From: Bilabrum cf. latius | Lineage: Eukaryota | Assembly (NCBI GenBank): GCA_965178125.1 | Contig: OZ237735.1 | Coordinates: 2,046,001-2,110,000, forward strand | Reading direction: 5' to 3' | DNA: 64,000 nt | Shown: one piece after another, positions 2-50,007 of the stretch | Numbering within the stretch: the first letter of the stretch is position 1 | Layout of the letters: each line of letters starts with the position of its first letter | The notes under the pieces: generated by a model | What the model was told of the DNA's origin: nothing | Seen by the model: only the letters and a program-made list of their open reading frames with translations | Databases searched by the model: none | Made by a program: the position numbers and the translations under genes

Positions 2-3000
2 GAGCGTGGTGACCTGGCCCTGTGTAGAGCCAGTCAGCAGCGCTTCATCGATCAGAAGCTCCGGCTGGTTGCCCGGAGTCACGGTCTGATCGGCGAAAGT
101 GATCTGCCACCTGTACCCGCGCACCGGGCCGGACGCTGGCACGGGCTAGCGAGCGACCTCGACGTGGCCGACGACCGCGTCCGCGTTACCGGTGCCGTTG
201 CCCATGCTCATGAGGGCAAAGCGCAGTTGCTCCGGGGACACATCGAACGGCAAGAGCTGCGTGCGCTCGCCCTTGAACTCCAGGGCGAACGAGCCGGCGG
301 CGCTGCCAGCGGTTGCGTGCTCGACCTGCACCTGCTGCACCTCCACGACGTGTTCATTCGACTCGAACCACTCCACCCTGTATTTCTAGATGGAATCGCC
401 CGAGGTGGCTGCTGGCTGCCTCCACGCCACATCGATGTGTGTCAACGGTGCATGCTCGGCCTCCTCGGCTGTCATGGTGTCCGTAGGGCACCCGAGCAGC
501 TCAGTCGCGTCGGTTTCCACCACCACAGCGGTCACCTGGGTTGGCGATTCAGGGGCGTTCGAAGGGATGGTCGGCGCTGGCTGGGCCACGGCGCTGAAAT
601 TGCCCTGCCCGACGCCCTCACCAGCCACAGCTGCGATGCGGAAGTAGATCGGGCGGCCGGGCTCCAGACCGGATACGTCGTGGTAGAAGGTACGGTCCTC
701 ATCCAGATCGCCATCGGGTGCCTCAGGGTCACCAATGAAGGGGATGGGAGTCAACGTGGCGTTGTTGGCACCCGAACCGGCCTGCGTCACCAGCGTGATC
801 GTGTCTGTCGGCTCGCCATCCGCACCCGAAGCGAACGTAGTCGACAGGTCGTACTCAATCACGTAGGCGATGATGTCCCTGCCACCAGACCTCCTAGGTG
901 CCCTCCACGTGACACGCACTTCGTCGCCGTACAGCACCTGCGCGGCCGGGTCCTAGGGAGTGGTCGGCTTGATGAAAGCAGGTGCCAGGCTGGAGGGCAT
1001 GCTGTACTCGTACTGCCTGTTCGACGTGGGCATGCCAGTGTGGGACACCATCTGGAACGGAACGGAGTTGCGGGCAAATACGCGAGCGAAGTAGCGAGTA
1101 CCGGTCGTCAGACCATCGATTACGAACGTGTACGGCGCCGCTCCGGCGAGGGCAGCCCCAGTCACAACCGCGGAACCAAGTGGCGTTCCGTCACCGCATG
1201 TGACCGCAGTCGTATTGGAACCGCTCGCAAACGTAGAAGCGGTGTCCCACTGCACGCAATACGATGTGATCGGGTCGCCACCGTCGCTGATAGGAGGCGA
1301 GAAGAACAGTTCTAGCTCCGTTCCAGAGAATATCTCGAGACGCACGTCTGTCGGCTTACCAGGAACTGATCGAGGCGTGGCTGGGAACACCACCGGCACA
1401 TCCGCCGACGGGGTCGTACCAATGGCATTCCTTGCCGACACGCGCACGTAGTACGCCTGGCCAGCGGTGAGGCCAGGGATGATCACGCACCTGTCGCACG
1501 AACGTTGCTGCACAGTGATCCGCGCGGTGCTGGCAGGGGTCAGCTAGTGCGAGTGGATGCGGATCGGCCGCGGCGGCCCGGACTTTCCGATGATGTCCAC
1601 GACGAACACGCGGCGTCGGTCCTGTGGGTCGGAAGCGCCAGTGTCAACAGTCACGGTTGCGGCCGAGACAGATGGCAGCGCCTCCAGAGCATCGCGAACC
1701 TCCTCAGCAGTCGCGTTCCAGGCGAGCGGCCTAGATACCGTGGCATCCGCTACTGCCTGCAGGCTCGCGGGCAAGTTGTCCAGAGACTCAGCCGGCACGT
1801 CGTCGATTGCGCCGGTGCCGCCAGTGCCACCGTATGCCAGCTCGAAGCCACCGCCCAGCGATGCGTTCACGTCCACGCCCTCAGGCACCTCAACCGTGAC
1901 GATCTGCCTGCCCAGCAGATAGTCGGCGTTGCTGTAGACAAGGGAGCCGTACGAAGACGTGCTGAAGCTCGAGGCAGTGTCCCACTCGACCAGGTACGAA
2001 GACGGCAAGTCACCGCCAGTGCTGGCCGGCGGGTCGAACGAAACGCGCAGGCCATTCGCAGAGGCCTCCGATCCCTTCAGCAGCTCCATGGCATGGGCCA
2101 CGGCGCCATCACCGGAAAGGCCGTGGCCATCCGTGCCCAGGAGGTCGACATCCCCGCTGTAACGCACGGCATCCACGAAAGTCACGCGCCACTCAAAGCC
2201 GTTCTGGAAGTCTCCGGGGTCCTGGCTGTCTGGCACGACGCCAGAATCAGGGGCCGCGGCAGAGGCTCGGCTCACCTCGACGGCTCCGCCGCCGCTTAGC
2301 TGCTGCAGGGCGGTCTGGACCGCACTGGCCGAAGCATCGAACGGCAGCTCAGCAGTCTGGTGCCCGCCACGCAGCAGGCGGAACGTGCCGCCGAGCTCGT
2401 TGCCCATCACTACCTGAGCCACAGTAACCTTGGCTCCCTTGCCGCGGAGTGCGTCCACAGTCTCCAGCATTGGCACATCTCCGCGGTCTTCCTCGCGCAG
2501 AGGCCCGTAGCGAGAGCCGAAGCCAAGGAATGTCACGGTCCAGTCGAAGCCGCCCACGCCATCAATCTCCCCGGGCTCGGACCGCCTGACAGTCACGTTG
2601 CCGATGCCAACGAGGTCCTCAAGGGCAGTCTCAACGTCGGCAGCACTGGCACTGTGCTGCAGCGAGCCGGTGAGCTCGGAAGCTGCGGAATGCGCTGTCT
2701 CGCGGAAGCGCAGGCGGAACGATCCGCTGATGGCGTTGCCGGCGGTGCGAGTCTCCACATTGCAGAAAGGAGTACCGGTTGCAGCAGTCAGGTTCTCGGA
2801 TCTGCACACGAACTCATTGGCGTCCCCATCGATGCCGTTCAGCGACAGAGTGAAGGTCACGGCACCCTCTGCGTCGGCGAGCGTCTTCTGCACTCCGACG
2901 ATGGGCCTACCACCCACAGCCTGGACCACCAGAGCCAGCTCAGCCTCCAGCTCAGCCACGGTCGTGTCAGCAGACAAGTCGGAGCCAGCCTCGTCCAGGG

Positions 3001-6000
3001 TGGTCACCGACACTGCGTGCCCGGTGCCGCCAGACCAAGAGCCGTCCATAGGATTGTCGTTGGCGCATTCGGACAAGCCAGCGGCCGCCTGGTCAGGGCC
3101 GTCAGTCACATTCAGCACGATGGAGTCGCCCGGGTCCGGACCAGCGGTCAGGAATACCACCATCCACGAGTACCCATAGTTGCTCGTAGCCGTGCCGTCA
3201 CCCTGACGGGCCACAACAACGTCACTCCAAGGATACGCACCCTCAATCGCCGCCTCGACCTCAGCTGCCGTGGCGTCAAAGTCGATGCAGTTAGTCACGG
3301 CCGTGACGTTGCCGCCCAGGTTCAGGCGGAACTGCCCACGAGTGATGCCCGGCCCAGTCGTGGCAGACACCGTCACAAGCTGCTTCTCGTGCTGGGTTCC
3401 CACCCCGTTCAGCTCCAGAGCAAAAGTGCCATTGAGGATGGCACCAGGCGAGTTGCGCACGCCGAGGGTGATCGTCTGCTGCTCAGGCACCACATCAGCA
3501 GTGCTGGTGATCCGCTGGATCTCATCGCGATGGGTCGCAGCAGTCGTGATGACCTGCACCTCGTCGACATGCAGGAGAGCATCAGCTTGAACATTCTAGG
3601 GGGCACCTGGCCTGCCACGAGGCCGATCCGAGGCCGGAGTGCCATCATCGCTAGGACTGGCCGCAGAGAGTCCGATAGCGTTGCCAGCCGACACTCTTGC
3701 AAAGTACGGTACGCCCTCTTGCAGACCAGAGATCGTGGTCGACAGGGGCAGGTAGGCCGGGGCGAAGTTATCGGCCGTGATCAGCTGAGCAGGCGCGGAC
3801 AGCAGCTGCACAAAGTCGCTGGAGCCGTCGTCGTTGTTGGATGCCCCCGTCACCATGATTGGGCTGACATCGCCGAGGTGCGAGTCAAAGGACACGAACC
3901 ACGTGAAACCGCTCGTGCGGTACAGCGCAACGTTGGTAAGCTGCAGAGCGCGGATGCTCGTCGCGTTCGACATGGGGTCCTCGACAGGGCTCAGCGGCAA
4001 GCTGGTAGCCGTGAATGGCCTGGTCACGTTGGTGCTAACCCTGAAGATCTCAGCCTTCAGGTACACCTGAAGCGCCCTGCTAGGAGCGCCAACGTACGGC
4101 GTCGACTCGTCGAGGGTCAGCGTGAGAGGATCGCCCACTGCGCTCGTCTCCGCGACGGAGATGGACAGGTCACTCGGGGCCGTGCTGCTGCTTCCGTTCA
4201 GGCAACCAGTCATCGGCTCTGTGGGATGGACTTCGATCGGCGCGTAGGTCATGCTAGTCGGGCTGAAACCACCACCCACAAAATACACCTCGTAGGTGTA
4301 ACCCTCGATGTGGTTCGACTCGTTTCGGAAGAAGGAGCGGATGACTTGAACACCGCCGCTGCTACTGATCAGTGCGATGGCATTGAGAGCGTCCTGTACT
4401 TCAGTGGCCTCGGCATCCAGCGGAATGCACGTCGTGTTGGTTCCGTTGTACGTCAGCAGGAACGCCATACTGTCACCCGCGGCATCTGCGAGGCCGTTGA
4501 CGCCGTTGGTTGCCGACGAGACCGAGATCTCCTGCACGGCTGTGCCAGTCTCCGCCACAGTGTGGTTGGTTCCGCGGATACGGATCACCGCACCGGGCTG
4601 CACGTACCGCTGCACAGAAGCAGACATGGTCAGGGTTGTGGTCGGCAGTGCCGACGTGTTGAAGGTCGTTGCCGCGGTAGCGGGCAGCAGCTCATCACCG
4701 GAGGACCCGATGGTAGTCGGCAACGGCATGGAAGAACCAGAGTAGGCCTGAAGCACGGTGCCGTTTGTGGGCAGAGGAACCGGTCGGGCGCCCGAGATGC
4801 GCACGAGATCTCCGCGGGCGAGCCAGCCACGCAGGTCCTGGGTGGTTGCGAGGTCGGTGTCGCCGCGTTGCGCGCTTGCCGACACAACGATCACGTGATG
4901 GCCACTGGTCGCATTGGACAGATCACTTCCCGACCGTGGCACGGAGCTTGCAATCCTGAACTCGCGGTGCACGGACACGGTGCCCACAGTAGAAAGCTCT
5001 TCCAGAGCGGCCTCTACCTCGTTGGCGCTAGCATCGTACCGAATACCAGGCAAGCTTGCCTGCGCCCCGTCCACGGAGAAGTTGAAGCGCCCTGCCAGGG
5101 CCTCGCTGCCGCGCACGGTCTCCACGATACCCACGAAGGCACCAGTACCGGTAAGGCTGGTGAAGTCTGCCACCAGAGGAGACACGTCGCCGGAGCCCGG
5201 CGGGAACGAGCGCCCGTTGCTGCTGCCGAAGTTCTCAACGAATCGCACAGTCCAGGCGTACCCACCCCGAGTTCCATCGACAGCGACAGCCGCGCCGTCC
5301 CAGCCGGCGCCCACCTCAGCACGAGTCACGAAGACATCACCGATGGTGTTCAGCCCGTCGAGGGCGGCCTCCACTTCAGCATCGGTCTCGTTGAAGTCTA
5401 CGGTGATGGGGCCGTTTGCCGCGGCCCCCAGGTTGAGATCGAAGGTCCCTTCCAAGCCATCAGACCCAGCCTGTGACTCCTCCACACGGGCGTTGGCCGT
5501 GGCCAGCTCGCACGCTGTGCACCCACTAGTGCTGGTGTTAGCCCCCGTCTCGTCTACCGTATTGTTCGTGATGGCCAGCAGAGGCAGGTCACCGGCTCCA
5601 AGCGGGAAGTTGTGCGGGTTGCTAGTGAACGTGATCACAAAGTTTCTAGAGCCGTACCGGTCGGTGATCTCCCTGCTAACCTCAACCAAGCCGGTCACTC
5701 CGCTCACACCCAAGCCAGGAGATCCATCAACATTGGAATCGGCGCTCTCAATCGCCGCGTCCAAGTCGTCGGCGGTGGCACGGACCGATACATTCGCGCT
5801 CGAGTGCACCTCTCCCGTGTAAGGGCTTGGTACCGACAAGCTGAAGTTCCCGATCAGCACGTTACCGCGCACCTGCTCCTGGATGTCGGTGTCTAGCAGA
5901 GTACCAGTCAGAGGCTCGGCACCGCCGCTGCCAGCAGTGTCAATAGTGATACCAACAATGTCGCCCGCGGCAGGGCAACCCATCAAGATAGGATCCGCTG

Positions 6001-9000
6001 CGTCGCACTCGGGGTTGGGCTCGCCACCTGCCAGATTCTCGGGCTGACTCAGGAATCGCACAGTCCACGTGTAGCCGCCAGTGGTTGTATTCACTGCAGA
6101 CCTAGTCACCTGCACCTCACCCACGTTCACGAGGTCCTCCAGGATGTCCTCAACAGACAGCCCGCTCTGACCAGGCACTGCGTTGGCGTCCGCAGTGCTG
6201 GGGAGGGCATTGTGGGCGATGGGAGACGTCTGCGCCACGGCATCTACGGCGCACGACAGGCACCCGGTGGTGTCGACAGTCAGGCGGAACTCGCCATCGA
6301 TGGGCTCCGTGCCGTCAACGCAGTCGGTGCCACCGTTCAAAGAGCCCGTACCACCCTCGCACACGCTGCACGCTGGGCTGCCTCCGTCCGATGGAGAGGT
6401 GGCTGTAAGGCTAGACGTGTCGCACCCCAGGCTGGCAAGGTCTCCCACGTTGCGGCCCCAAGATCGCGAGAAGCGGCGCCCGTTGGAGACTCCGACACCG
6501 TCCCATTCCTCGAACGTCGTTGTGCCGTCGTGCTAGTTGGAAAGGAAGGTGATGGACCACAGGTAACCACGTACCTGGCCGTGATCGACGCCGAAGGCCT
6601 CATCCGCAGCCGACTGGTTCAACGTAGTGCGGCTGACCTCAACGTACCCGGTGCGGTCGTCCACTACGCGGTTGGGAGTCATTGCTTGAAGGGCGGCGCG
6701 GACCTCGTCTGGGCCGGCGTTGTGGTTAATCGGAGGAGTGATGGACCCACCAAGGGACAGGCGGAACGTGCCTCCGAGCTCATTGCCCTGCTCCAGCGTA
6801 GACACAATAACATCAACACCGTCACCAGTCAGGTTGGTTCCCAGCTCCATTGGCGATGTGAGAGGAAGCACGTCACCGCCGACCAGACTGCCGACGAACG
6901 TTACGTCCCACTGCCAGCTGTGAGCATCAAGCGGACGGGCATTCGAGTCGAATCCGCCGCCGCCCTCCCTCGTGACAACAATTTCCTCCATGGCCTCAGC
7001 ATGCGTCACGTTGAACAGGTCAGCGATGGCACCGGCAAGAGCGCTGTGAACATCGGATGCGTTTGCGTACGCATGGATAGGCCAGGTGTCCGCGCAATCG
7101 TTCAAGTTCGGCACGTAGAAGTCGTTGCTGTCAGTGCTATGACAATACCTCAGAGCGAAGTTGCCCCGGATTTCGTTACCGCGCACCTCGTCGCCGGTCA
7201 GGTGCTGGCTGTCCTGCGTAGTCTCAACGAGCAGGTTCGGCGTACCAGGTCCAGTCAACGCGCTGTCATCGAAGCCCATCGTAGGGATGTTACCAAGGAT
7301 GTCGTCACCAACGAACGTGATCGAGTACTCCACGAAGCCGACCCCGCCGTTGGTACGGGTCACCTGGATGCTTGAGCTGCCAGCAACGTTTGCAAGTTCA
7401 GCGAGCCTAGTCTCGATGCTGTCGCTGTCGGAAGCATCGGAAGAAGCAGGGTTGATTCCAGCGGTAGTGGCGCTGATCTGCACGTCGCAGATGCTGCAGT
7501 TGGAGGTATCCAGGGTCAGGGTGAACGTACCGCCGGTGGCACTCACAACAGAAACGTTCTGCACCTCGTACACTCCGACACCGATGTCAATGCCAGCAAG
7601 AGGCGGGCTCTCGCTGCCGCTTTGTTCGTAGTACGGTAGACCAGAGGTTCCATTCGGCTCAAGCACGGCGTTAATCACCGAGAAATTAGACACGACCCCA
7701 GGTAGGTCCGTGAAAGTCACTGCCCATTCGTACCCACCAGTGGTGGACACGGCGGACCTAGACACTGTGACGTCCCCGATGAACGGGTCCATGTCCTCGA
7801 TGGCGGTCTCCACCTCATCATCCGTGGCACCGGTGCTCAGAACAGAAGACAGGAACACGTCGGGCTCATCACCGTCCACGTAGTTGATCCTGAGCTCTGG
7901 GTGGATGTCCTCGATCAGCAGCTAGAACGTGCCGTTGATCCAGATGCCATTGCGGATCGTCTCAACTTCACAAGTATACCCGTCAGCTAGTGCCGAGTCA
8001 TTGCACTACAGCTGTGCAAGGTTACCCACGGTCAGCGCGTTAGAAGCATCGAAGGTCACGAACCACTCAAAGGCACCCGTAGATCTGGGAGGACCGCGCG
8101 ACACCTGCACGTCACCAGCCACATTGCTCATCGCCAGCAGAGTGCCGATCATGCCAGATACCGCGTTGCCTTCAGATACATCCCACTCCATACCAGCCGA
8201 AACGTCAGATTCTGATGGCCTGGATGGGAAGTGGTCGGAGCCGTTGAGGGTCAGTGTGAAGGTGCCGCTCGCCTCCGATCCGTTCACGGTCGTCTCGAAG
8301 GTGACGGTAGGGGCGTCGCCAGTCATCGCGTTGGCAAGCAGAGTGATCTCTGGGTGGTTGCCGAACACCTTGTCGAAGCTGATGTCAAAGATGATGTTCT
8401 CCGTCGTGTTATCCGACGGCAGATCCGTCACGTTTACAGACACGCAAGGAGGCTCGTTGCACGCACCGTCGAAGGTGTCACGAAGGTGGATGGCAGCCTG
8501 CGTGATGTTGCTCACGTCAAGATGCGTCGTCTCGTAGACCGCGCCCGGGCGCTCACACAGCTCACAGCTCTCCGAACTCGTGAGGTCGAGCCGCAGACGG
8601 AACGTTCCCGCCAGATTGGTCGCGGTCGTGTTGACGACAGGCTCATCGCAAGCCTGGCCAGTCTCATTCTTGCACACCAGGAACGGCAACGGGCACATGC
8701 TGCAATCCGACGAGTCACACCGATCCTCGCTCCAGCCCAATGGGAACAAGCTGTCGGCAACGCTGGTGTCGAATACAATGTTGTACGAGTACCCACCCTG
8801 TACGGCATAGTCTCCGTCGTCTCGCGTTAACGACGCCACGTTGCCAGTCCCGACAAAGTTCTCAAGGATCGCTTCGAGCTCGCCCGAAGTGGCATTCCAA
8901 GGCACACACTCGAATTGGTTGCCGAAACTGAGCACGTAGTTGCCACCATCTACGCCGTAGTCGCCACCAGAGCCGTACGAGATGGTCTGCCTGAGGATGG

Positions 9001-12000
9001 GCTCCCTCACGACGATCTGCTGGTGCTGTACGCTGTCAGGCCCGGCGATGCTGATCCGCTGGATCTCGTTCACTTCCTGCGCTGAAGTGACGATCGTCTG
9101 CACCTCAGGACGATCCGTAGCCGTTGTTGCAACGCGCTGCACTTCGTTGATGTCATCGGCCCATGTCGCCACGGTCTGAACCTCCGCAACGACCGGCGCG
9201 CCCAGCATGGTTGAGATGGTCTGCTCTTCATCGCGGCCATCGACAGTCAGGACGACCGTCTGCCTCTCGTTGGTGACCTCCACGTCGGCAGTCACGGTCT
9301 GCACCTCGCCGATGGGGTTGCCCTCAAGCACGATTGCCTGAGTCTCGTGGAAGATGTACTCTTCTGTCATGGCGTAGCCGCCGTCATCGCTGGAGATTGG
9401 CGTCTCGGTGCTCGTCTCGACCACGAAGCGATCCAATGTGAGGCCGCCATCGAACTCAGGCAGAGACCAAGACACGTCCAGAGAGGTGGCGGAACCGGGA
9501 GTAGGGTCTACCTGCACGTTCTGCGGAGACGAAGGCACAGCCGACTGCGCTGTCACGTTCTCAGGAGTCGACATAGCCGGTGCGCCTGCACCCATGGCGT
9601 TGTATGCAATGACCCGAACCTGGTAGCTGTCGCCCTCGACAACGGTGGAGTTGTGCGTGCCACGCGTGATGTCTCGGACGCCAATCACGTAGCGCGTTGT
9701 ACTGGCAGACACAATCACCGAGTTGGCAGCGACAGCGTTCGGGTCGTTGTCGAATGCCGGCGTCTCCCACTCTACGTAGTAGCGCTGCAGAGGCAGACCG
9801 CCATCGCCGCCCTGCTCCGGAAGGTTGGGGTTGGGAGCCGACCACGTCACCAACAGCTGCTGGGACCCGACCGATGAAGCGGTCACATCCTGCGCCTTAC
9901 CTGGGACCGTGTTGGTGGGCGTCAAGCCGGCGGGCGACGTGTTGGCGAACGCACCGGTGCCTTGATCGTTGACTGCTGCCACACGCACGTACCAGGCCTG
10001 GCTGCTGGCTCCCACATTCACGTTGTGGAAGAACGGTCCGTTGGATGACGTCGCAAGCCCGCTCGCGATTAGGCCAGCCACCGACAGGATGATCTCATTG
10101 CCAGTCGTAGGAACATCCGAGAATGACGCATCGCGCGACCACTGCACCACATAAGCAGAGATGGCAGCCCCGCCGTTGTCGCTCGGAGGATCCCAGATCG
10201 CCTTAATGGCACTTGACGTGTGCGGCACCAACATGGCGTTGGCTGGCTCGTCGGACTGCCTGCGCGGAGTCTCGGACAGGATTGCAGAGGCATCCCCGGC
10301 TCCCTCACCGCTGATCGCGATGATCCTGATGCCGTACTCCACGCCGCGGGACAAGCCTGTCAGCATCGTAGCAAACTCGCTGCCGCCGGCGCTGTTCATG
10401 CTGTCGGCGTTGGCACGCAGTGCACCTATATCCGTCAACGTAGTGTAGTTGAACGAAACCGGCACCGAGCCTTGCACACGCTCGAAGGCGAAGGCACTGG
10501 CGGCGGTGCCAGTCAGGGAGGCACCGTGAGTGGTCATATCAGCGAGATCGCCGGACTGCGACAGGAAGGTAACCTGCCAATCGTATCCGTACGAGTTCAC
10601 CATACGCTCGACATCCACGTCTCCCACGGTAGGCAGAGCCTCGAGCTTGGACTCCATCTCCTCAGCGCTCACATCGAAGCGAAGAGGGGGCGTGCTGTAG
10701 CCCATGAAGCCGACCCGGAACTCGCCGCCCAGCGACTCCCTGGCCGTACGAAGAGTGAACGTATCCAAGATGTAGTCCTCACCAGACGCGGGCACTCCGC
10801 CATCAAACGATGTTGCGGGCTCCGCACGCAGCTGCGGCTGATCCTCGAACTGCTACGTGAATGTCACCTCCCACTCGTATCCGAAGGCCGACCTCTCAAG
10901 AGTTGCTCCAGCGAGGGCAACTCCAGTGAAGGTAGTGGTCGTCGCGGAGTTTGAAGGCTCTGCGAGGTCGATCTGAGTGCTGGTCACTGCATTCACACTG
11001 AACCTGATGCCGCCCAAACGGATAGGCTGACCGACCTGGATGCCACCTGCAACGAAGTCGCAGCCGGTACCAGCGTCGCAAGTCACGATGCCTGCTCCCT
11101 GTGCCACAGAGACAGTACCGGAAGCTGCCTGGAAGGACGGCTCTCGGGAAACAGTGACCGCTGAGATCGAAGGAAGAGCGTTAAGCTCATCCTCCACAGC
11201 AGAGTCTGTCGCATCGTGGTCAATTGTGAACGTCCGCTCGTCCTCACCAGTCGTGGGGTTGCGAGCAATCACCACGAAAGAGCCAGTCACGCTGTCAGAA
11301 GAAGCAACGCTGCGGATAACCTGCACCTCAGAGGCGCCGTCGCCAGCTGAGACGGTGATCCTCTACACCTCAGGCACGGGATCCATGGCTGCTGCTGAAG
11401 GCGAAGTACGCCTGGGCCACTGCTCGACGCGGTAGGAGGTAGGCTCGAGACCGCCGTTGTCTGCGGGCGGCGACCAGTGCACCTGCAGCGTGGACTCGCG
11501 CACAGATGGCAAGCTGCTATCCGAGAGAGACACGCCGGGAGAGCTGACAGCTCCTGGATGAGCCAGCGGCACCACAATTGAAGCGTCGCTGAAGGAACCG
11601 TATCCGTTCCTGTTGTACGCAGCCACGCGCACGTACACGTCAGTGCCCACGGGGAGGTTCTCGAGGTCCACACGAAGGGCATCGGTGCCTGCGACCACCT
11701 CGCGCACCTCCATTCGCGCGTTGGTACCCACAAGAAGGGTGTCGTTGGGGATCACCAGCGGCATGTTGCCAGCCCCTTGCAGAGTCTCATGCTCGCCATG
11801 AGTGTACGTGATCCGCCAGATGCGCCCGCCGGTCGTGTCATTGCCGGGAAGGCGGTTCTCAACCGACACAGCCGCCGTGTGGATGGTGCTCAGACCCTCC
11901 AGCACGTTCCTGACGTGGGCTGCAGGGGACCAGATGGAGATTGCCTCAGTCTCGACACCCTCGAACTCAAGAGCGAATCTGGAAGCGCTTCCAAGCTCAG

Positions 12001-39000: not shown

Positions 39001-42000
39001 CGAGGAAGGTAGCGTGTTGCTGTGAAGTGGCTGACATGAGGCCGTGCCCAGCCGCGGTCGATGCAGCAGCGCTAAAGTGGGAGTGAACGACATTGGCGGT
39101 ACTAGCCGCGCGGCGGCCTGCCAAGAGAACGGGCTCGGCGCCGCGCTTTTCCAGCTCAGCGGCGGTCTCGGTCTCACCGGCCCCAGCAGAGTTCATGGGC
39201 AGCAGATGCACGGACACCGTGTACTCGCCGGCGATCACAGGGGTGTACCTGATGTCATAGGTCCCATCGCCGTTGTCTACTATGTCACCGGCCACAATAG
39301 TGCGCCCGCCGGCAGACCCGTCAGCAAGGTCCTAAAGAGACAACTCCCCGAGTCCATCGGCTGTCACGAGCGATGTGCGAGCTACGATGCGGCTGGCGTC
39401 GCCACCGACCGTGATCTGGTTTCCGCTCGAATCGCGAGCCTGCAGAGTCATTGTGGACACATCACCGGCAACTCCTTCGGTGAGACCGCTGCCACTCACC
39501 GAGGTGGTCACGTACGAGATGCGGCCAGGCAGCACGGTCACAGAGTATGGTGAGGCACCCATTGGGGTGCTGGCACCCACCGCCTCTCCAGCAAACGACA
39601 CACTCACTGAGAACGTGCCAGCGGAAGTGGGGGTGTACCGTGCGCGGAACAGGCCGGAACCGACGGACTCCACTACTGGGGCAATCACCTGGCCGGCACC
39701 AGCCACCTCGACCGAAATGTCGTTCAACACGGCCGCGCCCTCTGGGGTGGTCGCGTCGTCGGTCCGGTTGTTGCCCTGAGCATCTCTAAGCTGCAGGTAG
39801 AACTCGGTTGGCACTCCTGCGACGAGGCTGGAAGACTCGGCGCCCTCGCCGAACACCATCGAGAACGGCGCATCGGGCATTCCGGGCCTCACATCGATGG
39901 CAAAAGGAGAGCCGTGGATATGCTCCGCTGCAGCGAGCATGCCAGAGGGGACAACCTCCCGAGCGCGAGAAGGCGAAGACCACTCCAGCTTGATGGCTGC
40001 TGGTCCAGTGGAATGGCGGTACTCAACCACGACGTCCGCCCACTCGCCCTCCTCGAGCTCGACGCCAGCCTGGAGCTCCTGCATGGTATCTAGCTGACCC
40101 GCGACGTCCGACGGAGACATGCCCTGGCTGAGAAGCAGCTCGTGGTTGATCCACACCCTGACACCACCACCAATAGCAGACACGAAGAACGTGAAGCGCT
40201 CCGTGGAGGGTACCAGAAGCTTGCCAGTCCAGCGAATCGACACATAGTCCCTTGCGTAGGGCGTCACGAGTCCCTCGCCAAAATCAAAATCGATGCCGGC
40301 GTCCAGCCTCTCCATCGACGCAGGCGCGCGGAACCACTGGGAGTCGTAGTAAGCACCGGTCAGGCCACCGCGCACTAGCTGCCGCACGGCAAGGGCAGCC
40401 GGGCCGGGGCTCGAAGGGGCGTACCGCCCAGCGTACGCTGGCTTGCCCACGACGAGATGCTTGCTAAGGACATCACCGCCATCGAAGTTGTCGGCGGCTC
40501 CCATGCGGGTCTCCTCCACAGCCACTGATGCGCTGCTTCCGCGCAGTGAGGCGGCGTTGGAAACAAGGATAGGCGCATCGCCAGGGAAGTCCACAAAGGT
40601 GACGGACCACTCAAACGTCTGGGCTGGCCCGCTCAGAGCCTGCCTGGACACGCGGACGGAGCCCAGGCCCGGCAAGAGCTCGAGTGCCGCCTGCATCTCA
40701 GACGCAGAAGCGTCATGCGGAATGGCCGCGGAGTCAACGCCCCCAAACTGAAGGGTGAAGGATCCCGCCAAAGGCGTGGGCGATCCACCGCTGGTAGCAA
40801 TTCGCTGCACCTCCCGCACGGTCGTGCCCGGCTGGATCAGCGGCACCGAACCCGCGTTACGACGGAAGGTGACCAGCCAGGTCAGCCCGTTCCAACGAGC
40901 GCTGCGGTCAACATCCACAGTACCAACGGAGGGCAACGCCTCCAGTGCAGCCTTCACGTCCGAAGCAGTGGCGTCGTAGCCGAGTAGCTCGGTCTCATCG
41001 CTCTCAAACGACAGCGTAAAGGTGCCTGTGAGCGGCGACGACCCGTTCGTCACAGTGGCCACAGCGGAGTCCTCCGGGGTGGTGCTGCCTGACGTGATCT
41101 CGATCTCCGGCACGTTGCCCAGGGGCTGCGCAAACGTGATGCTCCAGCGGGTAGCGCCGGTCACACCAGCGGCAGCGGCCACGCCGGTCGTGTCCACAGC
41201 CACAGAAGCCTTCACAAAGGCGGTCGAGTCCTCTTGGAGGGCAGCATCCGTCACGCCGAAGTCGAACGGCGTAGGCACGGCGCTGTCAGCACCAGTGCTG
41301 GAGGTATTGGCTGCTCCAGTGACTTCGCGAAGCAGAATCGTGCCGAGCGCGGCCTCAAGCTCGTCAGCGGTTGTGGCTGAGGTCACTGCAATCGTGGTCG
41401 TGGACTCACCCACCTTCAGCACGAGCTCAGAGGTGGTCATATCAGTAGCTGCAGTAAAGCTGGTCAGCGTCACGGTCTGCACCTCCCGTACAATGCCGGT
41501 GGCAGCAGCAGACTTGATGGACTGCACTGCAGCGCGGCCAGAACGGATCTCGCGGACGCTCATGGACGCTAGAGCAGTGGCAGGGGTCAGCACCTCAGCT
41601 GCAACGCTGAGGGGAGCCACGTCTCCAGTCAGGGTCAGGAAGGTGACGTCCCACACAGAGGCCCCCTGTCCAGCAGGTGATCCCTCGTACCGAGTCACCT
41701 ACACATCACCCGTGGCGGTCGTTCCATCGGCTGTGGTCAGCGCCTCAAGCGCGGCCTCCACTTCGGCCGCAGTCGCGTCGAATTCAAGGGGGATCGTGAC
41801 CAACGAGGTGTTCCCGCCTCCCAGCAAGAGGGTCTAGTTCAGGTTGAAAGCCAGAGTAAAGTTGCCGGCCGACACGGCGGGTGCAGATGCCGACAGCGGC
41901 GGCACGTCGATGGAGATTCGCTGCACCTCTGCCTCAGTGGGCTCGTAGGTGGCAACACCGCCGTCTGATGACCACGAGTACACCATGGAAGCAGACGAGG

Positions 42001-45000
42001 CCGGGTAGCGAGATCCGACGAGGTCGTCAGAGGCAGGGGTGAAGGCAGGGTCCGTGCCATCAGCTGGGAGTGCTTGCCTGGAAGCAGACCACACCTCAGT
42101 GAAGAACAGATCCATGCCCGCGAAGCCATCAGCGGCGTTTACGTCGCGTACCACAGAGCCGTCTGCACGACGCGGCTGGATAGTGAACTCATTCGCTCGG
42201 CCGCGGACCTCCTCCGTGACCTCAACCGTGGTGTTCACGCCCACTAGGGCAGTGTTGCCACCAGACTGCAGCAGCGGGATGTCCCCGGCCCCAGCGTCCA
42301 GGAAAGTAACCCGGAAGGCAGACCCAGTCCTGCCCGCTGAAAGTGCTCCGAGATCCTCGCCAACGTGCACTCGCACGTCACCAATGACGGCCTGGTAATG
42401 GCTGGAGTTGCCATCGGCTTCAGAGGAGAAGGGCATGTACTGAAGATCGATAAGCGCATCACGCACTTCAGCAGTCGACGCATTCCAAGCAATCGCATCG
42501 GACTCGGCACCGTTTCCAATGCGCAGGGTGAACGTTCCTGCCGGTGCGTCCCCGCCCGTGGCTGCCACTACAATGGACTGCACCTCGCGCACCTCCCCGG
42601 TGAAGCCGCGAGCGAGAGCTCCTCCAACGGCCTCCGTCCTGGCTGCGGATGCTCCGGCGCGGATCACGATAGCGGGGGTCGCAATGGAAGGCGCAGATAC
42701 GGCACCGCCGCCCACGGCAGCTGACAGAGCCACGACACGGAACGCGTAGGCCGCACCAGTAGCAAGACCACTTGCAACAGCGGTGGTACGAGAGTCATCT
42801 CCAGTGCCATCGTACGCCAATACAGCCGGGGTGCCTGCGACGGTCTCGGTGACCATGCCGAACGCCTCTGTGCCGTTCAGGCGACCGGTCGATACGAGCA
42901 TCGAGGGAAGATCACCGACGGAGGCCACAAAAGTGATGGCGAAAGACACGCCCGAATAGTCGGGAGTACCGGCCAGCGGGTCATCGAGGTCAGTGGCCGA
43001 AGGAGAGGCCAGCATGGCGTCCGTGCGAGACACGCGGACCCTACCGTTGGCGCTGGGGATCGTCGTCTCGATCACGCGCGCTACCTCCGCGGGGCTTGCC
43101 GAGACTGGGATGTCACCGGTCACATACCCATCGCCGAAAGTCAGGGTGAAATCACCGGTGAGATCAAGGGAACCCCGAATCGTCTCCTCGACGGATGCAG
43201 TCACGGCCACGCCGGCAGTAGCTTCGTCCAAGAACGAGGTCTCGATGAACAGGGATGGCACATCGCCGCCAGCTCCGACTCCAGCCGAAGTGTCCATGAA
43301 CGTCACGTTGAACGCAGCGCCGTTAGCCGAAGGGGGTGCCAGCTCAACGACACTCACGGTCTGGATGGAGTCGAGCGCCTCGAGGGCAGCCTTGAACGTC
43401 ACGGGGGTCAGCCCGGCCCAATCGATGGCTGCCGTGCTTGCTTGGCCGAACCTGGCCACAAAGCTACCGCCGTTGGCACCGTCAATAGAAACAAGCTGCG
43501 ACTCAGGCTGCGCCTCGGCAGCCAGCAACGTGACCGTCTGCACCTCGACCACCGCCGCTGCCTGGTCCGAAGGCACTACACGGGCAGGCTGTGCGAACAG
43601 CTGGAAGCCAGTAACGCTGCTTCCAGATGCAGCAGCAGCGTCGAAATCAGCAGAATCTGAAAGGCTGACGGCACGGATGGCATCCACCAGAGCAGCATCC
43701 TCGGTGTCCACGCGATCCCAACGGAACTCCGCAGACGTCGAACTAATGGACAGCAGAGCCGGCATGGTGGGCGGCAGAGGGGATCCAGCGGCCCGTACTG
43801 TGGCCACTGGGCTCAGCGGGGACTGCAGCGTGGTGTTGAACGCAGGCCCGGACATGGGCCTTGTCCTGGCACGCACCGCGATGGCGTAATCCTTGCCCTC
43901 CTCCAGGCCCCGGGCCACGTGCCGCAAGGCACCATGCTGCACCACGGAAGCGGTAGCAGTGGCAGCGGCGGGCAGTAGATCATCGTCAATGACACGGAAC
44001 GGGCCGGCAAAGTTGGGGCCCCAGCCGCCGTAGCCGCGAGTCACAGCGATGGTCCACGTGACGCGGCCCTCGGTGGCATCGATCACGTCTTTGGTGGCCA
44101 CGACCTCCGCCATCGAGCCGCCGAGGGTGTACGCAGCCTGGGCCGGGTCCCTTAGCATCTCCTTCACCGCAGTGGCAACCTCCTCCGCGGTGGCGTTAGC
44201 ACCAATGGCCTCGGTCACGATCGTGATGTCGGGATCGCTGCCAAGCCGTGCCTCCAGCCTAAAATCGCTGGTGGAGTCGACGGTGCAGCTTCCGCCGCAT
44301 GTCACAGTCACGGCCTGTGTCTCGGGGTGTCCAGCACCCTCCTGCTGGGTAGAGGAGGCGTCAGGATAGTCCCTTACCTCGATCTACGGGATGTCACCGG
44401 ATGGGTGCAGCACGGTCACGGTGTACACGCCAGCGTTCACCTCCACGCTAGTAGCCACCATCGAAGACGGGTCGGAGCCAGGCACCCCGTTGGCATCCAC
44501 TAGAAGGCTCTCCACGGCCTGCCTCATTGCCACTCCGAACGGGAACGCACCGGAGAAATCAGGAAGGGCCACCGACTGCAGCCCGCCCGCAGACACGGAA
44601 GACGAGACGGCGCCACCAGCGGAAGCTCCAGCGTCATGGAAGGCAGCGCGCGGAGTCGGCCAGCTGACCTCGAGGAAATGCCCGGCCCCAGTGCCGGCTG
44701 CCGTACGCACGGCATCGAGGTCGATCACCTACCGCTCGGGCGTGCCAGCGATCACCTCCTCCACAGCAACCGAACTGTTGGCAACGGATGCACCCTGCAG
44801 AGTAGACAGAGACACGCGCACGGAGTAGTCCGTGACTGCGCTGCCACCGTTGTCAAGGGGTGCGTCCCAGCCAGCTGCCACAACGCCGTCATTTGGCACA
44901 GTAGGGGCACCGGCTGAGGTCTCCGTGTCGCGCTTGGGGGCAGCAGGTGCCGCAGGTGCCCTGGGGTCGCGCGCCACAAAGGGTGCGGAGGGGCTGGAAG

Positions 45001-48000
45001 GCAGGCTGCTGCCTGCGAGGTTCCTGGCGATCACACGGAAGCGCAGGGGCTCGCCGTTCCTGACCATGGGGGCGGAAACCACAGCCGACCTAGTCCATGG
45101 CTGGTCGCTGCCATCGAAAGCAGTGCGCCACCCATCGTCGCCAGGGGAGCCAGACCCCTCCTCGGGGCCCTCCTCTACCTGAAGCTCGTAGCCAGTCACA
45201 TCAGCACCTCCGTCGTCCTCTGGTGCACTCCAGCGCACGTGAATCGAGTCAGCCGTGGTGGCAACCAGCTCTGGTGCTGGCGGGGCCTTGGGTGCGTCGG
45301 GGCTGGGCATGGCGCTGGCAGGGTACGGCACAGCCCTGGGACCGAATCCCTCAGCAACAGATCTGGCCGATACCACGACGTGGTAGGTGCGCTGCGGGCT
45401 CAGTCCGTCGATCAGAAGTGAGTACGGCAGAGGCGCCGACAGATCAGTGAAGTCCACGGTGCCGTAGAAGGCATCCCCGTCAGAACCCACACCGGCCTGG
45501 ATGCGGGAGACGTTGGCAGTCACATTCGCGTCGGCCTCCAGGGGGAGTCCAGCCAGTGTAGCGGCGGTGTCGTTCCACGTCCCGGCGGAAGATCCACCGG
45601 CGATGCCAACCAGGGCCATCACACGGAGCCTGTCGATGAATCCGTGAGCGCAATCGTCCTGCGCGCCCATCTCAAGCGTGGTGGACGCGGGAGTGCGCTG
45701 GCATCCATCGAAGGTCACACGCCACAACACAGTCCCCTCGACAGGCACCCCGATCGAAGTCGTGGCGGCAGGGGTGGCATCGGCCTGCCCATCCCCATCG
45801 TAGTCCAGTCCCACGCTCACAGACCTAGTTACAGACACACCGCCGACGCCGAGGGGTCCCTCGAGAGCTGCCTCCACCTCCTGGGCAGTGGCAAACACCG
45901 AGAGCTGCTCGGTGGAACTGGTCGGAGACGCAGTAAGCAGGCCGAAAGACCCGCCGAGAGCCTCGGATGGGGCCACCAGGGCATGTGCCGTCACCTGGGC
46001 GTCCACACCAGTCAGAGACTGCGCCGAGTCAACCCCAGTGGCGAGAGGCACGATCGTAGGGAAGGCCGGGGCATCGATGGCCGATCCCTGCGGAAAGGCT
46101 CCTGGGTTGGACAAGAAGGTAACCGACCACGCATACCCGCCCTCGCTGTCGGGGCTTGACCGAGTCACGGCCACATCGCCAATGCTGGGGAGCGCCTCAA
46201 GTGCGGCCTCCAGCTCCTGGGGCTGGGCATCATGCGGAATCTCCGCGGAGACATGACCGGCAAAGGACAGGCGGAAGGTCCCGCCCACCTCGTTTCCTGC
46301 CCTGGATCCGGCGGAGAGCACAGTGGCGGCACTGACACAAAGCTGCACGTCCTCCTCGGTCAGCCCTCGCGCCGCAAGGTACTCGGCAGGGTTGCTGGGG
46401 CCGCCCGCAGCGAAAAACTCCTCCTCAACGCCGTCCTGGCACACGATGATCCGCGAGTTGTTTCCCAACAGGGCATCATCCACGCCCTGGATCGCCGGTA
46501 GGTCCCCACCCAGGCCATCGAAAGACACCAGCAGCGCCACGCCGCCCACGCTGTCGATGTTGCCTTGGTCAGTGGTCACGGCTACCGCGGAGGCACTGCC
46601 GATCGAGTCGAGCGACTCCAGGGCAGTCTCCACGTTGCCCACGGTAGATGCGGTGATGGAGATGGCCTCCGTCACCTCTCCGCGGAAAGACAGACGGAAC
46701 TGCCCCTGGAGCGGCGCACCACCGGGCACAGAGGTTACCACGCTCATGAAGCGAGTGCCATCGAGCGCACGGTTGTCGAAGGTGACCTCGGGCACATCGC
46801 CGGCGTAGCCCTGCACGCCGAGGACCGCGAAGGTCAGGGTCATCACCTGCGGTGTTGCAGTGGGGGAGCAGGCACCCGAGGCCCCAGAAGAGAAGGCCAC
46901 GGTCACGCCGCTGACAGAGTCAAGAGCCAGCAGGGCCTGCTCCACGGCAGAGGCTGCGGCGTTCCAGGCGATGTCGCCGGTGCTCTCTCCGTCCACAGCG
47001 AGGCGGAACGTGCCGCCGTTTGCGGCACAGCGCACCTCCTGCTCCTCCTGCACGCTGGCACCGCTGCCATCGCCCGTGATCAGCACAATCTGCCTCTCCC
47101 GCGAGGATGACGAAGCCGAAGTGATCACTTGTTGGCGAGCCACCTGCACCGGCGCAGTCACCTCAATCTCCTGCACCTCTGGCGTGAAGCCGGTGCCAGC
47201 GGCCATCCACTCCACCTTGTACGAGGCGATTCCGGAGCCGCCATCGCTTGCGGGAGGGTTGAAAGACAGACCAAGGGCTCGGCCGGAAGTACCAGCGACT
47301 CCGCTGACGCTGCTGGAGGCAGGCGATGCATCCAGCCTGACGTCGACAGGTGCCGACGGTGCCTGGGGCATCGGGGTGACCAGGCGTGGGAACCCGTAGG
47401 CGGGCTACGACTCACCTGCAGCGCTGAGTGCAATCACCCGCACAGCGTACGGCACGCCCTGGTCGAGCGCCGTGATGAAGCGAGCAAACGCAGCCGAGGC
47501 ACCGGTGGACATGGGAGACGCGTCTCCGGTGTTGCCAGCGGCCTGGTGCATGGAGCCCAGGGGAAGGCCACCAGGCCCTGAGGCAAATGACGGCTCAGCA
47601 CCCTTGATGGCTTCAGACACGGCCACCACCGCCACGGTGGCGTTCAGGGATCGCGCGTCTCCCTGCATGAGGGGCACGTCGCCCACAAGGTCGGAGAAGG
47701 TCACGCTCCAGGTGTACCCAAAGTTGGCGTCTTGGCTGCTGCGCTCGACCTCCACGCTGCCAACGCCGGACAGGAGCTCGATGGCGTCGCGCACCTCGGC
47801 GGCAGTGGCATCTTGAGGCAAGAAGCCAGTGCGCTGCCCGGCGAGGGAGAGGGCGAAGCGGCCGCCGGGCTGAAGCGGGCGCGCGGTCCCGTCCTGCATA
47901 CCCACCAGGGTCAGTGTGGCCGAAACGGGCACAATGGCAGGCTCGGGCAGGTTGCCTGCGAATCCCGCATACGTGATGTTGATGGCGCACCCTTCGGTCG

Positions 48001-50007
48001 CGGGCTCACGGGCGCTGTCACCGGAGACGCTCACGCCGGTGCCGACGTGCTCGGCAATCAGGGCCAGCTCGTCCTGGAGCTCGGCTGCGATCTCACCGCA
48101 AGTGGTTGCGTTGGCAAGGGTTACGTTGCCGGTGGCCACCGACATACCGGTGGTGCGAAGCCCGGAGAAGACGAATGAGAAGGCACCTGCCGGTGCTCCC
48201 GCCGAGATGTCAAGGCGGTGCACCTCAGCGTACGTGCCGCTGCTGACCTTGGCGGCCTCAATGGAGGCACCCTCAATACCCTCGCCCAGGCGGAGCTCGA
48301 CAGCGGAGCTGTTTGCGTCAATCAGCTGGAAGGGACCCTGCTTCTCGGTGAATGAGAGGGTCCAGGTGTACCCGCCCGCCGGCCGGCGGTCGGAGCGCGC
48401 GACATGCACGTGACCCACAACGTCAGATGCCTGGGCATGCAGGGCGGCCTGCATCTCCGCGGCAGTCGCGTTGAGGGAGACGTTCGCCACGCGGGCAGTC
48501 ATCCCGTCAGCGTCCGTAACGTTGAAGCTGAACATGCCGACCAGCTCGTTGCCCTGGATGGAGGACCCCGCGACGTTGCAAGGGTCCCCACCCCTGGTGC
48601 CTGTAAAGGCGGCCGGTAGCAGGGTCGAGTTGGTCGTCTCGCCGTCAGCGCAGACAACGATGGCCGCACCAGTCCCAGACAGCTGTGCGCTGCTGGCAGT
48701 GAGGGTCGGCACGTCACCGTCATGCATCTGCGTGTCGACAAACGTCACGTACCACGAGTACGCACCCTCAGCAGTGGCCGCGTCGGAGCCAGTGAAGGGG
48801 GCCCTCGACACCTCAACGTCACCAACGCCCTGCAGCGCCTGGAGGGCGGACTCCACGTCTGCCTCGCTGGCATCAAAGTCCAGCGCGGTGGTGGTCTCTC
48901 CCTCGAAGCCCAGCGTGAAAGACCCGCCCAGCTGGTTGCCGTGCTGCGTGGTGTCGATGTCCACGCTGGCACCTGCACCGGTGAGGCCACTCCTCACCAC
49001 ACGGAGCTGAGGCTGGTCCGCTGCTGGCTCGTGGAACGTCACGGACCACTCGTAGCCGCCCTGCAAGTCGGGCCCGGTCCTCGTCACAGTGACGTCATCC
49101 ACGTTGAGGAGTGCCTCAATGGAGCTCTCGAACGACGCAAGGCTACCTGCTGCTGCCGCGTCGTGGGCGATGTCGGCGGTCACGTAGCCATCGAAAGAAA
49201 GCGCAAAGCTGCCGCCGAGCGTCTCTCCAGCGAGTGCAGTGGTGGTGACAGTCTGCACCTCCGGCACCCTGCTGGCAGCAGTGTGAACGGACTGAACCTC
49301 GTCCACATCGTCTGCGCTCGTTGTCAGCGTCTGCACCTCGGTGGCACCCACGGTAGGTCGCACGTGAATGCGCTGCACCTCCTCAACGCCCTAATTGGTG
49401 TCCCATTCCACGCGATAGGAAGACACGGGGCTGCCTCCGTCGTCCGAGGGGGTCCCGACTTCCACACGGACCGCACTGCCAGAGACAGCGTTCACGCTGA
49501 CAAAGCTGGGCGAGCTAGGCGGCTCAATCGCGCCGGTCAGCCCCCCAGGGGACGTAGATGAGTTTGATCCTCCGTACAAGGCTCCTTCGCATCCGAAACT
49601 GCCACACACTACTGCGCTGGGCGATGCTGCGAAGATGCCGGGCACGGCAGCGCCACCCTCCAGGATGGACTGCCCTAGCGCACCGACAGCAAGGCCTGCG
49701 AAAAGCTTGGAATGCGATAAATCGTAACCCTTATGGATTGTGGGCAACTGAGGCGCATGCAAATGAGGGGGCAGCCGCTCAGACTAGCCAGGAATTCAAG
49801 ATCATCTTCGACGCTGACGATACAAAGAGTAGGGAGCGCAGGCAAGGTCAGCCACGCGCCATCGCCTGGAAAGCAAGCAAAATTGCACAAGTGATATATT
49901 CACTGGACGATGCCGAGGTATTACGGCTTCAAACGAACCTCTTGGGCTCAACGGTCAGCACGACTACCCTCACATGCAAAGGCTTGCACCGCTGGCGACA
50001 TCCTCAT
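2..50007 (-). CDS. Giant secreted/surface multidomain protein (FN3 + filamin + PA14 + EVQ repeats), >=16,576 aa, 3'-partial; exon 1 50007-49974, exon 2 49695 to beyond position 1; needs TAG read as sense (Gln)
   Basis: All 36 long minus-strand ORF fragments from 146..376 to 49391..49762 share one frame (stop coordinate mod 3 = 2) and each ends in TAG. Reading the gaps by hand gave 5 more in-frame TAGs (7922, 14708, 17561, 24956, 41699) and no TAA/TGA; the frame is still open at position 2. Domain motifs run across the TAGs. The spliced N-terminus MRMSPAVQAFACLAVGALG-QS looks like a signal peptide; N-x-S/T sequons are frequent. Confidence 0.92.
31470..31891 (-). other. PA14 domain 3 of the giant protein, spanning an in-frame TAG at 31556
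   Basis: GGLQGSYYNNRFFFGKPAMTRVDTTISFSW...DDVSARWTGWLKVPFSENFTFEATVNDAARLVVDG...ITLEW*EATGAAQVELKY...IIPAERLF; the domain is complete only if TAG is read through. Confidence 0.85.
35570..36145 (-). other. PA14 domain 2 of the giant protein (approximate limits)
   Basis: GGLLATYY...VDDAIDFNWG...WSARWSGSI...SDGGVRVRVNGTVVIDNW...IEVEYRHGSGAAAIALQW. Confidence 0.85.
39935..40369 (-). other. PA14 domain 1 of the giant protein (approximate limits)
   Basis: GGLTGAYYDSQWF...RLDAGIDFDFGEG...DYVSIRWTGKLLVPSTERFTF...GGGVRVWIN...VEYRHSTGPAAIKLEWSSP...VVP fits the PA14 pattern. Confidence 0.85.
49696..49973 (-). other. Predicted spliceosomal GT-AG intron (278 nt, phase 1) in the giant gene
   Basis: Minus-strand donor GCAT|GTGAGG at 49973 and acceptor TTTTCGCAG|GC at 49696. 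Splicing makes TGC (Cys), keeps frame and joins ATG 50007 to LAVGALGQS. The interval is more AT-rich than the exon and has stops in the exon-2 frame. Confidence 0.75.

Follow-up and report, generated by a model that had tools for sequence, protein, structure and literature searches.

A giant reading frame or several dozen genes

A stretch of 64,000 nucleotides (nt) from the assembly of Bilabrum cf. latius (GCA_965178125.1, contig OZ237735.1, positions 2,046,001 to 2,110,000 of the forward strand), here called the window and numbered from its first letter, raises the question of whether positions 2 to 50007 encode several dozen ordinary proteins or a single one of extreme size. The answer depends on how the codon TAG is read. 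A first-pass annotation made from the letters alone had proposed one gene with TAG as a sense codon. The results described below indicate that the region is probably one nuclear stramenopile gene in which TAG specifies glutamine, and that its product would be a giant secreted fiber or adhesin built like a string of beads.

On the minus strand, the frame 2..49795, counted from an upstream TGA (49798-49796), comprises 16,598 codons, with no TAA, no TGA, and 42 TAG, which bears out the proposal of a single gene. Over an equal stretch, the remaining five frames hold 120, 128, 384, 457, and 548 TAA and TGA codons versus none in the giant frame, which is therefore far beyond chance. Translation of positions 1..50000 of the minus strand with table 11 yields many open reading frames (ORFs) of 300 to 1,070 amino acids (aa); with TAG read as sense there is a single ORF (2..49762, 16,587 aa), which has a TTG start and is open at the window edge. 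The earliest in-frame ATG of this continuous frame is found only at 48727. GC content by codon position is steady over all blocks (approximately 0.61 to 0.67, 0.50 to 0.56, and 0.65 to 0.75 at positions 1, 2, and 3, respectively), and Pfam domains score above the cut-off in each of the four chunks of the giant frame (fn3, Filamin, PA14). The giant open frame is real and coding throughout. Its longest run free of TAG is 1,078 codons, and the spacing of the TAG codons would divide it into about 42 pieces; the expectation that standard annotation shreds the gene stands, but the number of pieces had been put at about 36.

Long ORFs are also present on the opposite strand, for example at 1505-5476 and 35649-37955 (both plus strand), and reach 1,323 aa when TAG is read as sense. 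These are antisense shadows of the GC-rich coding region and not genes.

Gene structure

Contigs from the public runs X1, X5, X6, and X7 were aligned over positions 31500-51400. Run X1 provides a 54,789-nt contig that is colinear with the whole stretch; it represents genomic DNA, possibly the source of the window, and retains both of the introns described here. Run X5 has no aligned contig over 50433-50663, and many bins are empty in X7; no conclusion rests on either. In run X5, a 50,596-nt contig matches 31500-49694 with no other letters and no gaps, passing through 13 TAG codons. Beyond 49694 it skips 278 nt, matches 49973-50172, skips another 156 nt, matches 50329-50432, and ends. Both skipped pieces run CT..AC when read on the plus strand and GT..AG when read on the strand of the gene, and run X6, from a separate study, presents the identical two joints. 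Because of these two GT..AG-bounded skips, the X5 contig appears to be derived from RNA; were it DNA instead, an intronless copy would still support the joined frame. Another 32,097 letters of the contig lie leftward of position 31500, and it would reach base 1 plus about 598 nt if it is colinear there.

The alignments show that the gene has three exons within the window, all on the minus strand: a leader exon, a 199-nt exon with the ATG, and one giant coding exon that measures 49.7 kb or more. Exon 1 (50329..50432) is a noncoding leader without an ATG that is joined to 50172 in X5, and the contig end at 50432 need not be the true 5' end. Intron 1 (50173..50328, 156 nt, GTAAGT...GCGCAG) is missing from the X5 and X6 contigs but present in that of X1. 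Exon 2 (49974..50172, 199 nt) contains the first ATG of the joined exons (50007-50005) and contributes 11 codons plus one base. Intron 2 (49696..49973, 278 nt, GTGAGG...TTTTCGCAG) is missing from the same two contigs, its joint being displaced by an allowed single base (“cut +1”), and holds the in-frame TGA at 49798-49796 and a TAG at 49786. Exon 3 (2..49695) is supported by the frame counts, the Pfam matches, and the X5 match; it comprises 49,694 coding bases with 41 TAG and no TAA or TGA, and it is open at base 2. Once the exons are joined, the ATG at 50007 opens the frame of the giant exon. The coding sequence within the window therefore amounts to 34 + 49,694 = 49,728 nt, or 16,576 codons with 41 TAG, and corresponds to a protein of 1.70 MDa with an isoelectric point of 4.3.

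These values agree with the exon of about 49.7 kb, the product of at least 16,576 aa (exactly the spliced codon count, open at the edge), and the mass above 1.6 MDa given by the first-pass annotation. Its start codon at 50007 was also correct, but the exon is not uninterrupted from there, since the start lies in the separate 199-nt exon with the 278-nt intron between. It had further named separate mRNAs, or introns that remove the TAG codons, as the outcome that would speak against a single gene. Over 31500-49694 the contig is unbroken through its 13 TAG codons, and the sole skips are the two 5' introns, which remove no coding TAG. A single coding exon this long (at least 49.7 kb) and a product of 16,576 aa or more place the gene and its protein among the largest known in eukaryotes; titin has about 35 kilo-amino acids (kaa) and Dumpy about 23 kaa.

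Meaning of TAG

Two TAG codons fall in strongly conserved alignment columns. One, at 57174-57176 on the plus strand, lies in a neighboring gene for a dynamin/EHD-like GTPase, where the column is glutamine in 120 of 120 homologues. The other, at 11363..11365 on the minus strand, is residue 12811 of the giant (counted from 49795), where 23 of 24 homologue alignments have glutamine. Retranslation with table 15, which reads TAG as glutamine, fits both columns, as had been suggested. The homologue alignments cover 33 of the 42 TAG positions of the giant; apart from this column and the arginine and proline columns considered below, the columns vary. Glutamine is the most likely meaning of TAG, with fairly high confidence. 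Leucine, tyrosine, and tryptophan were also scored as meanings of TAG, and in both the repeat columns and the homologue columns they fall far below glutamine and glutamate.

In-frame TAG codons occur in all five neighboring ORFs, 17 of them after the first ATGs. TGA terminates each of these five ORFs and TAA none. The giant frame contains no TAA versus about five expected if TAA were a glutamine codon, given its 53 CAA and 451 CAG. Two TAG codons of the GTPase align with lysine and proline of mouse EHD2 in a PDB alignment and are uninformative for the meaning of TAG. A scan of the window retrieved no tRNA genes.

Searches of the literature for a nuclear reassignment of UAG/TAG in stramenopiles retrieved no report, mitochondrial cases only. 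If this negative result holds, the window represents a new lineage with a variant nuclear code and, if TAG does encode glutamine, the first nuclear stop codon reassignment reported in a stramenopile. The locus is a concrete case in which the genetic code must be settled ahead of gene calling.

Anatomy of the giant protein

The protein begins with a short hydrophobic core (Kyte-Doolittle values of 2.0 to 2.5) that resembles a signal peptide, in agreement with the signal peptide of the first-pass annotation. In homologues P0174 and P0175, a hydrophobic leader is followed by FN3 and then by an E-V/I-Q strand, in the same order as in the giant. Where many sequons and Cys pairs had been noted earlier, the count is 145 N-x-S/T sequons and 124 cysteines. 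Self-built profiles recognize at least 30 FN3 modules, 5 filamin modules, and 3 PA14 modules. The FN3 profile shrank to the N-terminal approximately 40 residues of the domain; the number of 30 is therefore a minimum, and the ends given for FN3 modules are approximate. An iterated hidden Markov model (HMM) recognizes 71 copies of a unit of about 82 to 90 aa, between 26-301 and 48974-49219, here called the CTE-like module after the phage domains described in the next section. The protein had been described as rich in FN3; the dominant unit is instead this module, with at least 30 FN3 beside its 71 copies. In total, 109 modules cover 9,969 of 16,598 residues, and nine unassigned stretches are at least 150 aa long.

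The modules form successive blocks: first one rich in CTE-like modules at the N terminus, then one of PA14 and filamin modules, an alternation of FN3 and CTE-like modules, and a C-terminal run of CTE-like modules. The first FN3 module (49166..49486, minus strand, as are all features of the protein) directly follows the signal-peptide-like start and is the first of the 30 self-profile matches. The CTE-like copy at 40523..40813, identified by the iterated HMM, served as the reference for structure modeling with AlphaFold2. PA14 module 1 (39944..40372; PF07691, E value of 2.5e-19) is followed by two filamin/ABP280 repeats (39203..39850; PF00630, E value of 2.9e-37). PA14 module 2 spans 35600..36046 (PF07691, two stretches in chunk 1), and PA14 module 3 spans 31484..31894 (PF07691, E value of 4.1e-18), the latter with a weak GLEYA match as well (PF10528, E value of 2.1e-5). 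All of these PA14 and filamin modules were also retrieved with the self-built profiles; three further filamin repeats lie at 36155-36427, 35234-35488, and 34133-34381, giving the five copies in total.

Reading of the translation revealed at 9041..9310 about eight tandem “E-V/I-Q-x-V/I” strand motifs of approximately 12 residues, without the rest of the repeat. The E-V/I-Q motif is the first strand of the modeled CTE-like repeat and also of the repeats of gp23 of mycobacteriophage Bxb1. A shorter run of the same kind follows the first FN3 module, at about 49200-49350. Some CTE-like copies carry an insertion of about 45 to 65 aa with a “G-D/T-x-I/V-x-I/V” strand, for example at 20732-20929, and similar insertions lie near residues 4890, 6750, 9990, 11230, 12900, and 15000 (counted from 49795), some of them reading R-G-D. 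A profile built from insertions of about 45 to 60 aa matched only its own seed (one match), the copies being too diverged.

The repeat copies are 19 to 39% identical to the reference copy, and Tandem Repeats Finder detected no DNA array at a score of at least 80 in 1..50100. The low identity between copies together with the absence of a tandem DNA array indicates that the repeats are ancient, and the same figures agree with the old, diverged repeats described at first reading.

The dominant module is shared with phage virions

No Pfam model matches the module of about 90 aa at an E value of 0.01 or better, and three di-repeats retrieved no NCBIfam family. The AlphaFold2 model of the reference copy (predicted local distance difference test [pLDDT] score of 88.4, predicted TM-score [pTM] of 0.77) presents a strand-strand-helix-strand-strand fold with two additional short strands. 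A Foldseek search with this model against the PDB retrieved nothing at an E value of 0.001 or better (best, 1.3e-2). A VIA-align structure search against 48,161 chains placed three phage domains at the same root mean square deviation (rmsd) of 2.1, namely, residues 391-511 of the Bxb1 tail tip protein gp23 (9d93_Ma; Z score of 11.3, 88 aligned residues, 27% identity), residues 308-387 of the Bxb1 capsid (9d9w_Aa; Z score of 9.6, 76 aligned, 26% identity), and residues 103-179 of a chain of phage Patience (8giu_1; Z score of 8.6, 74 aligned, 19% identity). The next match is the sheath-tube of cyanophage A-1(L) (8kee_A, 94-178; Z score of 5.4, rmsd of 3.5, 77 aligned, 17% identity).

Comparison of sequences points to the same proteins. 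Against PDB sequences, the repeat profile matches the Bxb1 gp23 “tail tip cage” with an E value of 1.3e-40 over three full repeats with matching motifs, the Bxb1 capsid with 8.7e-8, and the Bxb1 tail tube gp19 with 5.1e-5. A tblastn search with the di-repeat 40523-41074 (minus strand) retrieved 285 phage records (281 Mycobacterium and 4 Gordonia phages) at about 30 to 32% identity, and in all 12 of the records listed the match sits in a “minor tail protein” gene. Among the PHROG families, those of major-tail and sheath proteins are matched in the parts appended to them, and PHROG 10909 matches with an E value of 4e-12. As judged from these sequence matches and the modeled fold, the 71-copy module is homologous to the CTE-like domains of Bxb1. 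The name is that used in PMC13252515, which also describes baseplate accessory proteins of Bxb1 and of Douge as binding cell wall glycans and the function of the phage modules as only partly known. The bioRxiv text of PMC13419713 does not mention CTE domains.

The phage modules resemble those of the giant in being exposed and arranged in tandem and in having in common an opening E-V-Q strand, a G-x-F-x-L strand, and a helix motif. Phages of the Bxb1 type append one to five copies to virion proteins of 280 to 690 aa, whereas the giant contains 71 copies within a predicted secreted eukaryotic protein, mixed with FN3, PA14, and filamin modules. By analogy with the phage proteins, for which glycan binding is stated of whole baseplate accessory proteins, the module of the giant may perhaps bind glycans. 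The main module, unmatched in the Pfam and NCBIfam scans, links the decoration of mycobacteriophage tails and capsids to extracellular giants of eukaryotes.

Among 1.84 billion representative proteins, the repeat profile matches 16,481 at an E value of 0.001 or better, 5,882 at 1e-10 or better, and 1,264 at 1e-30 or better, and the best matches are proteins of 1 to 7.8 kaa with up to 50 repeats. Among the strong matches is P0140 (2,251 aa, 24 repeats), whose record gives a partial protein from a Planctomycetaceae metagenome-assembled genome. Either the family has a bacterial member here or a eukaryotic contig was misbinned.

Homologues across stramenopiles

A BLAST comparison of the giant with 164 fetched proteins revealed colinear alignments with 27 to 35% identity over 1.3 to 3.5 kaa in Nothophytophthora, Phytophthora, Cantina marsupialis, Phaeothamnion, Thalassiosira profunda, and unnamed records. 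The unnamed protein P0127 (5,079 aa) aligns with residues 667-3674 and then 3975-6395, in order; P0155 aligns with residues 5048-8027; the Cantina marsupialis protein P0137 (6,001 aa) aligns in four ordered blocks across 11737-15969; and P0181 aligns with residues 14696-16591. P0123, P0124, P0126, and P0130 likewise align in order. These colinear homologues in several stramenopile classes support the earlier proposal that the gene is kept under selection.

In P0123, P0124, P0126, and P0130, about 850 aa separate the equivalent of the window edge from a conserved end, and no hydrophobic segment is found near the C terminus. The homologues end alike, with a last FN3 module and a cysteine pair and without a transmembrane-like segment. 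Given the approximately 850 aa left in the homologues, the gene may encode a protein of about 17.4 kaa. The X5 contig may be truncated. A comparison of the last 47 residues in the window with longer proteins gave no matches among 17 candidates. P0124 has an N-terminal hydrophobic segment of its own and aligns with only the distal 40% of the giant, which indicates that shorter paralogues exist.

The relatives, exemplified by Cantina marsupialis EP01029_P004229, Nothophytophthora RLN71996.1, Phytophthora cactorum KAG2799873.1, Phaeothamnion CAM9130727.1, and Thalassiosira profunda ACHAXT_007513, share the Pfam module set with the giant, and P0174 and P0175 also share its N-terminal order. All are shorter, all were read with the standard code, and many are marked as partial. 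Among the 150 best homologues listed, none exceeds 7,822 aa, less than half the length of the giant, an indication that the family as a whole is undermodeled. Similar FN3-rich giants had been said to be annotated “titin-like” in stramenopiles, but the named homologues retrieved are labeled “hypothetical protein,” “unnamed protein product,” or “Fibronectin type-III domain-containing protein.” Literature searches for “titin-like” stramenopile proteins and for giant FN3/PA14 proteins of protists retrieved nothing relevant.

A proposed secreted fiber or adhesin and its alternatives

The signal-peptide-like start, the sequons, the cysteines, the PA14 modules, and a dominant module otherwise known from exposed surfaces (virions and perhaps flagellar hairs) together suggest that the protein is a secreted, glycosylated string of beads. 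The chain would enter the secretory pathway via its signal-peptide-like N terminus, would be glycosylated and disulfide bonded, and would extend outside the cell over some tenths of a micrometer. Modules of these kinds are 3.5 to 4.5 nm long, so that 109 of them would span approximately 0.4 to 0.5 μm. FN3, filamin, and CTE-like modules would serve as spacer and scaffold. PA14 is a carbohydrate-binding fold, and by analogy the PA14 modules, and perhaps the CTE-like modules, might bind sugars of a substrate, of prey, or of the coat that surrounds the cell itself. The role as an extracellular filament or adhesin offered by the first-pass annotation is thus plausible, as judged from domain content.

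The proposed logic is comparable to that of the giant adhesins of bacteria, in which some hundred beta-sandwich spacers project a few lectin-type modules from the cell. The 1.5-MDa ice-binding adhesin of Marinomonas, for example, has a long extender and a distal sugar-binding module of the PA14 type. Such adhesins use type 1 secretion, RTX anchoring, and nearly identical repeats, and homology is limited to the PA14 and Ig-like folds; the giant, unlike them, has old and diverged repeats and a predicted eukaryotic signal peptide entry. As a modular extracellular protein, it is set apart by its size, its single coding exon of about 49.7 kb, the module shared with phages, and a host in which TAG reads as glutamine.

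Several observations weigh against this reading or limit it. None of the 13 runs listed for 42000-51900 is recorded as RNA, and a tool's guess for X5 was “probably DNA.” The contigs show neither transcript ends nor the continuity of single molecules, and colinearity over 1-31499 rests on contig-size arithmetic. One TAG column of the giant is arginine in 13 of 13 alignments and another is proline in 4 of 4; the repeat columns at TAG score higher for glutamate (6.3) than for glutamine (3.4), and the likelihoods from homologue columns are nearly tied (−96.7 for glutamate and −97.6 for glutamine). The C terminus of the giant, with any anchor, lies beyond the window, and a full-length, uncleaved chain is predicted from the gene. 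Of the 16,598 residues, 6,629 (about 40%) lie outside the four profiles. FN3 and filamin repeats occur in intracellular proteins too, and sugar binding by the modules of the giant is a prediction.

Four other explanations were considered. If TAG were a true stop, the locus would be about 42 short genes, a decayed pseudogene, or a site of local readthrough. Table 11 does yield its many ORFs of 300 to 1,070 aa, and no tRNA with a CUA anticodon was found in the window scan, but all of the pieces share one frame without TAA or TGA in 16,598 codons, domains span the TAG sites (18 of the 42 TAG codons lie inside repeat copies), five unrelated neighbors also contain in-frame TAG, once at an invariant glutamine, and the TAG codons are unchanged in the X5 contig. 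This explanation is close to refuted and hardly credible. Also very improbable is a titin-like protein inside the cell that would act as a ruler or spring in the cytoskeleton or the flagellar root. Its FN3 modules do match titin FN3 (E value of 3.8e-27), filamin repeats are classic cytoskeletal modules, and the size is comparable to that of titin; all seven PDB sequence matches of a conserved 1,441-aa stretch are titin FN3, a likeness to titin and twitchin that explains automatic “titin-like” labels. Nevertheless, the signal-peptide-like start is conserved in homologues, the chain has 145 sequons, 124 cysteines, and PA14 lectin-type modules, and the dominant module, which is absent from titin, is known from exposed virion surfaces. 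The kinase and Ig I-set domains that are hallmarks of titin are absent from the Pfam matches at an E value of 0.01 or better over the 16,598 residues, as are actin-binding domains. By its sequence the giant is not a relative of titin, and the likeness is confined to FN3. Less easily dismissed, but still doubtful, is cleavage of one long precursor, within the secretory pathway, into many smaller glycoproteins that act separately at the surface or in the matrix. The blocks of differing module content would suit it, as would the shorter homologues that cover the distal 40% only, P0124 having its own N-terminal hydrophobic segment; colinear homologues of 5 to 7.8 kaa argue instead for long chains as the conserved state, and no cleavage motif or self-cleaving domain was found, although no search aimed at either was made.

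The last alternative places the giant in the stramenopile-specific tubular mastigonemes (flagellar hairs), as a part or anchor such as their thin filaments, terminal or lateral, or a scaffold that sets their length, and is unlikely, if somewhat less so than the precursor. Homologues are found across hair-bearing stramenopile classes, and the repeat profile matches OCM5 of PDB entry 9ufe (E value of 0.0025, profile positions 12-91), as well as the “Tubular mastigoneme protein” and OCM6 of the same entry (0.12 each). The second-tier neighbors in the ESM Atlas (0.84 and 0.79) are clusters from oomycetes, with EGF_2 present in 42% and 51% of the members. Against these points stand the weakness of the 9ufe matches, one alone being below 0.01, and the conserved 1,441-aa stretch, which among PDB sequences matches titin FN3 only and no 9ufe chain. 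Mastigoneme proteins are rich in EGF, and the giant has no Pfam EGF match at an E value of 0.01 or better. A preprint (bioRxiv 10.64898/2026.09.11.750887) likewise describes them as EGF-rich. The proteins of 9ufe (OCM5, OCM6) are extracellular, as proposed for the giant, and share with it the lineage and apparently the module, though weakly and once per chain; their chains are 366 to 723 aa long. Because the domain also decorates phage virions, sharing the module implies no common structure. There is a small chance that the giant, conserved across stramenopiles, forms an extracellular structure common to the whole group and so far assigned to no gene, such as the fine filaments or scaffold of the tripartite flagellar hairs that define stramenopiles; the protein would have been missed through truncated gene models and, here, also through the reading of TAG as glutamine. 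A secreted fiber or adhesin remains the favored reading.

Neighboring genes and source organism

Five further ORFs occupy the remainder of the window. The dynamin/EHD-like GTPase, which is without a C-terminal EH domain, is encoded at 56712-58688 on the plus strand with four in-frame TAG codons and is 44 to 57% identical to stramenopile proteins, some of which are named “RME1-like GTPase without a C-terminal EH domain.” Its named homologues are those of Cafeteria roenbergensis (48% identity), followed by oomycetes, labyrinthulids, diatoms, and brown algae. By this homology, the host appears to be a stramenopile protist. Four neighbors were identified by reading of the translations, namely, a putative TALE-type homeobox protein with long low-complexity arms (60125-63661, plus strand), a putative AMMECR1-like protein (58733-59446, minus strand) that has no PDB match at 1e-5, a leucine-rich-repeat protein with lysine-rich tracts (52823-55765, plus strand), and a low-complexity protein rich in serine, alanine, and arginine (50732-52990, minus strand).

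Contigs identical to the window occur in runs X5 and X6, which are filed under organism codes (B and C) other than that of the likely source (A). Samples with different organism names contain this protist or nucleic acid from it.

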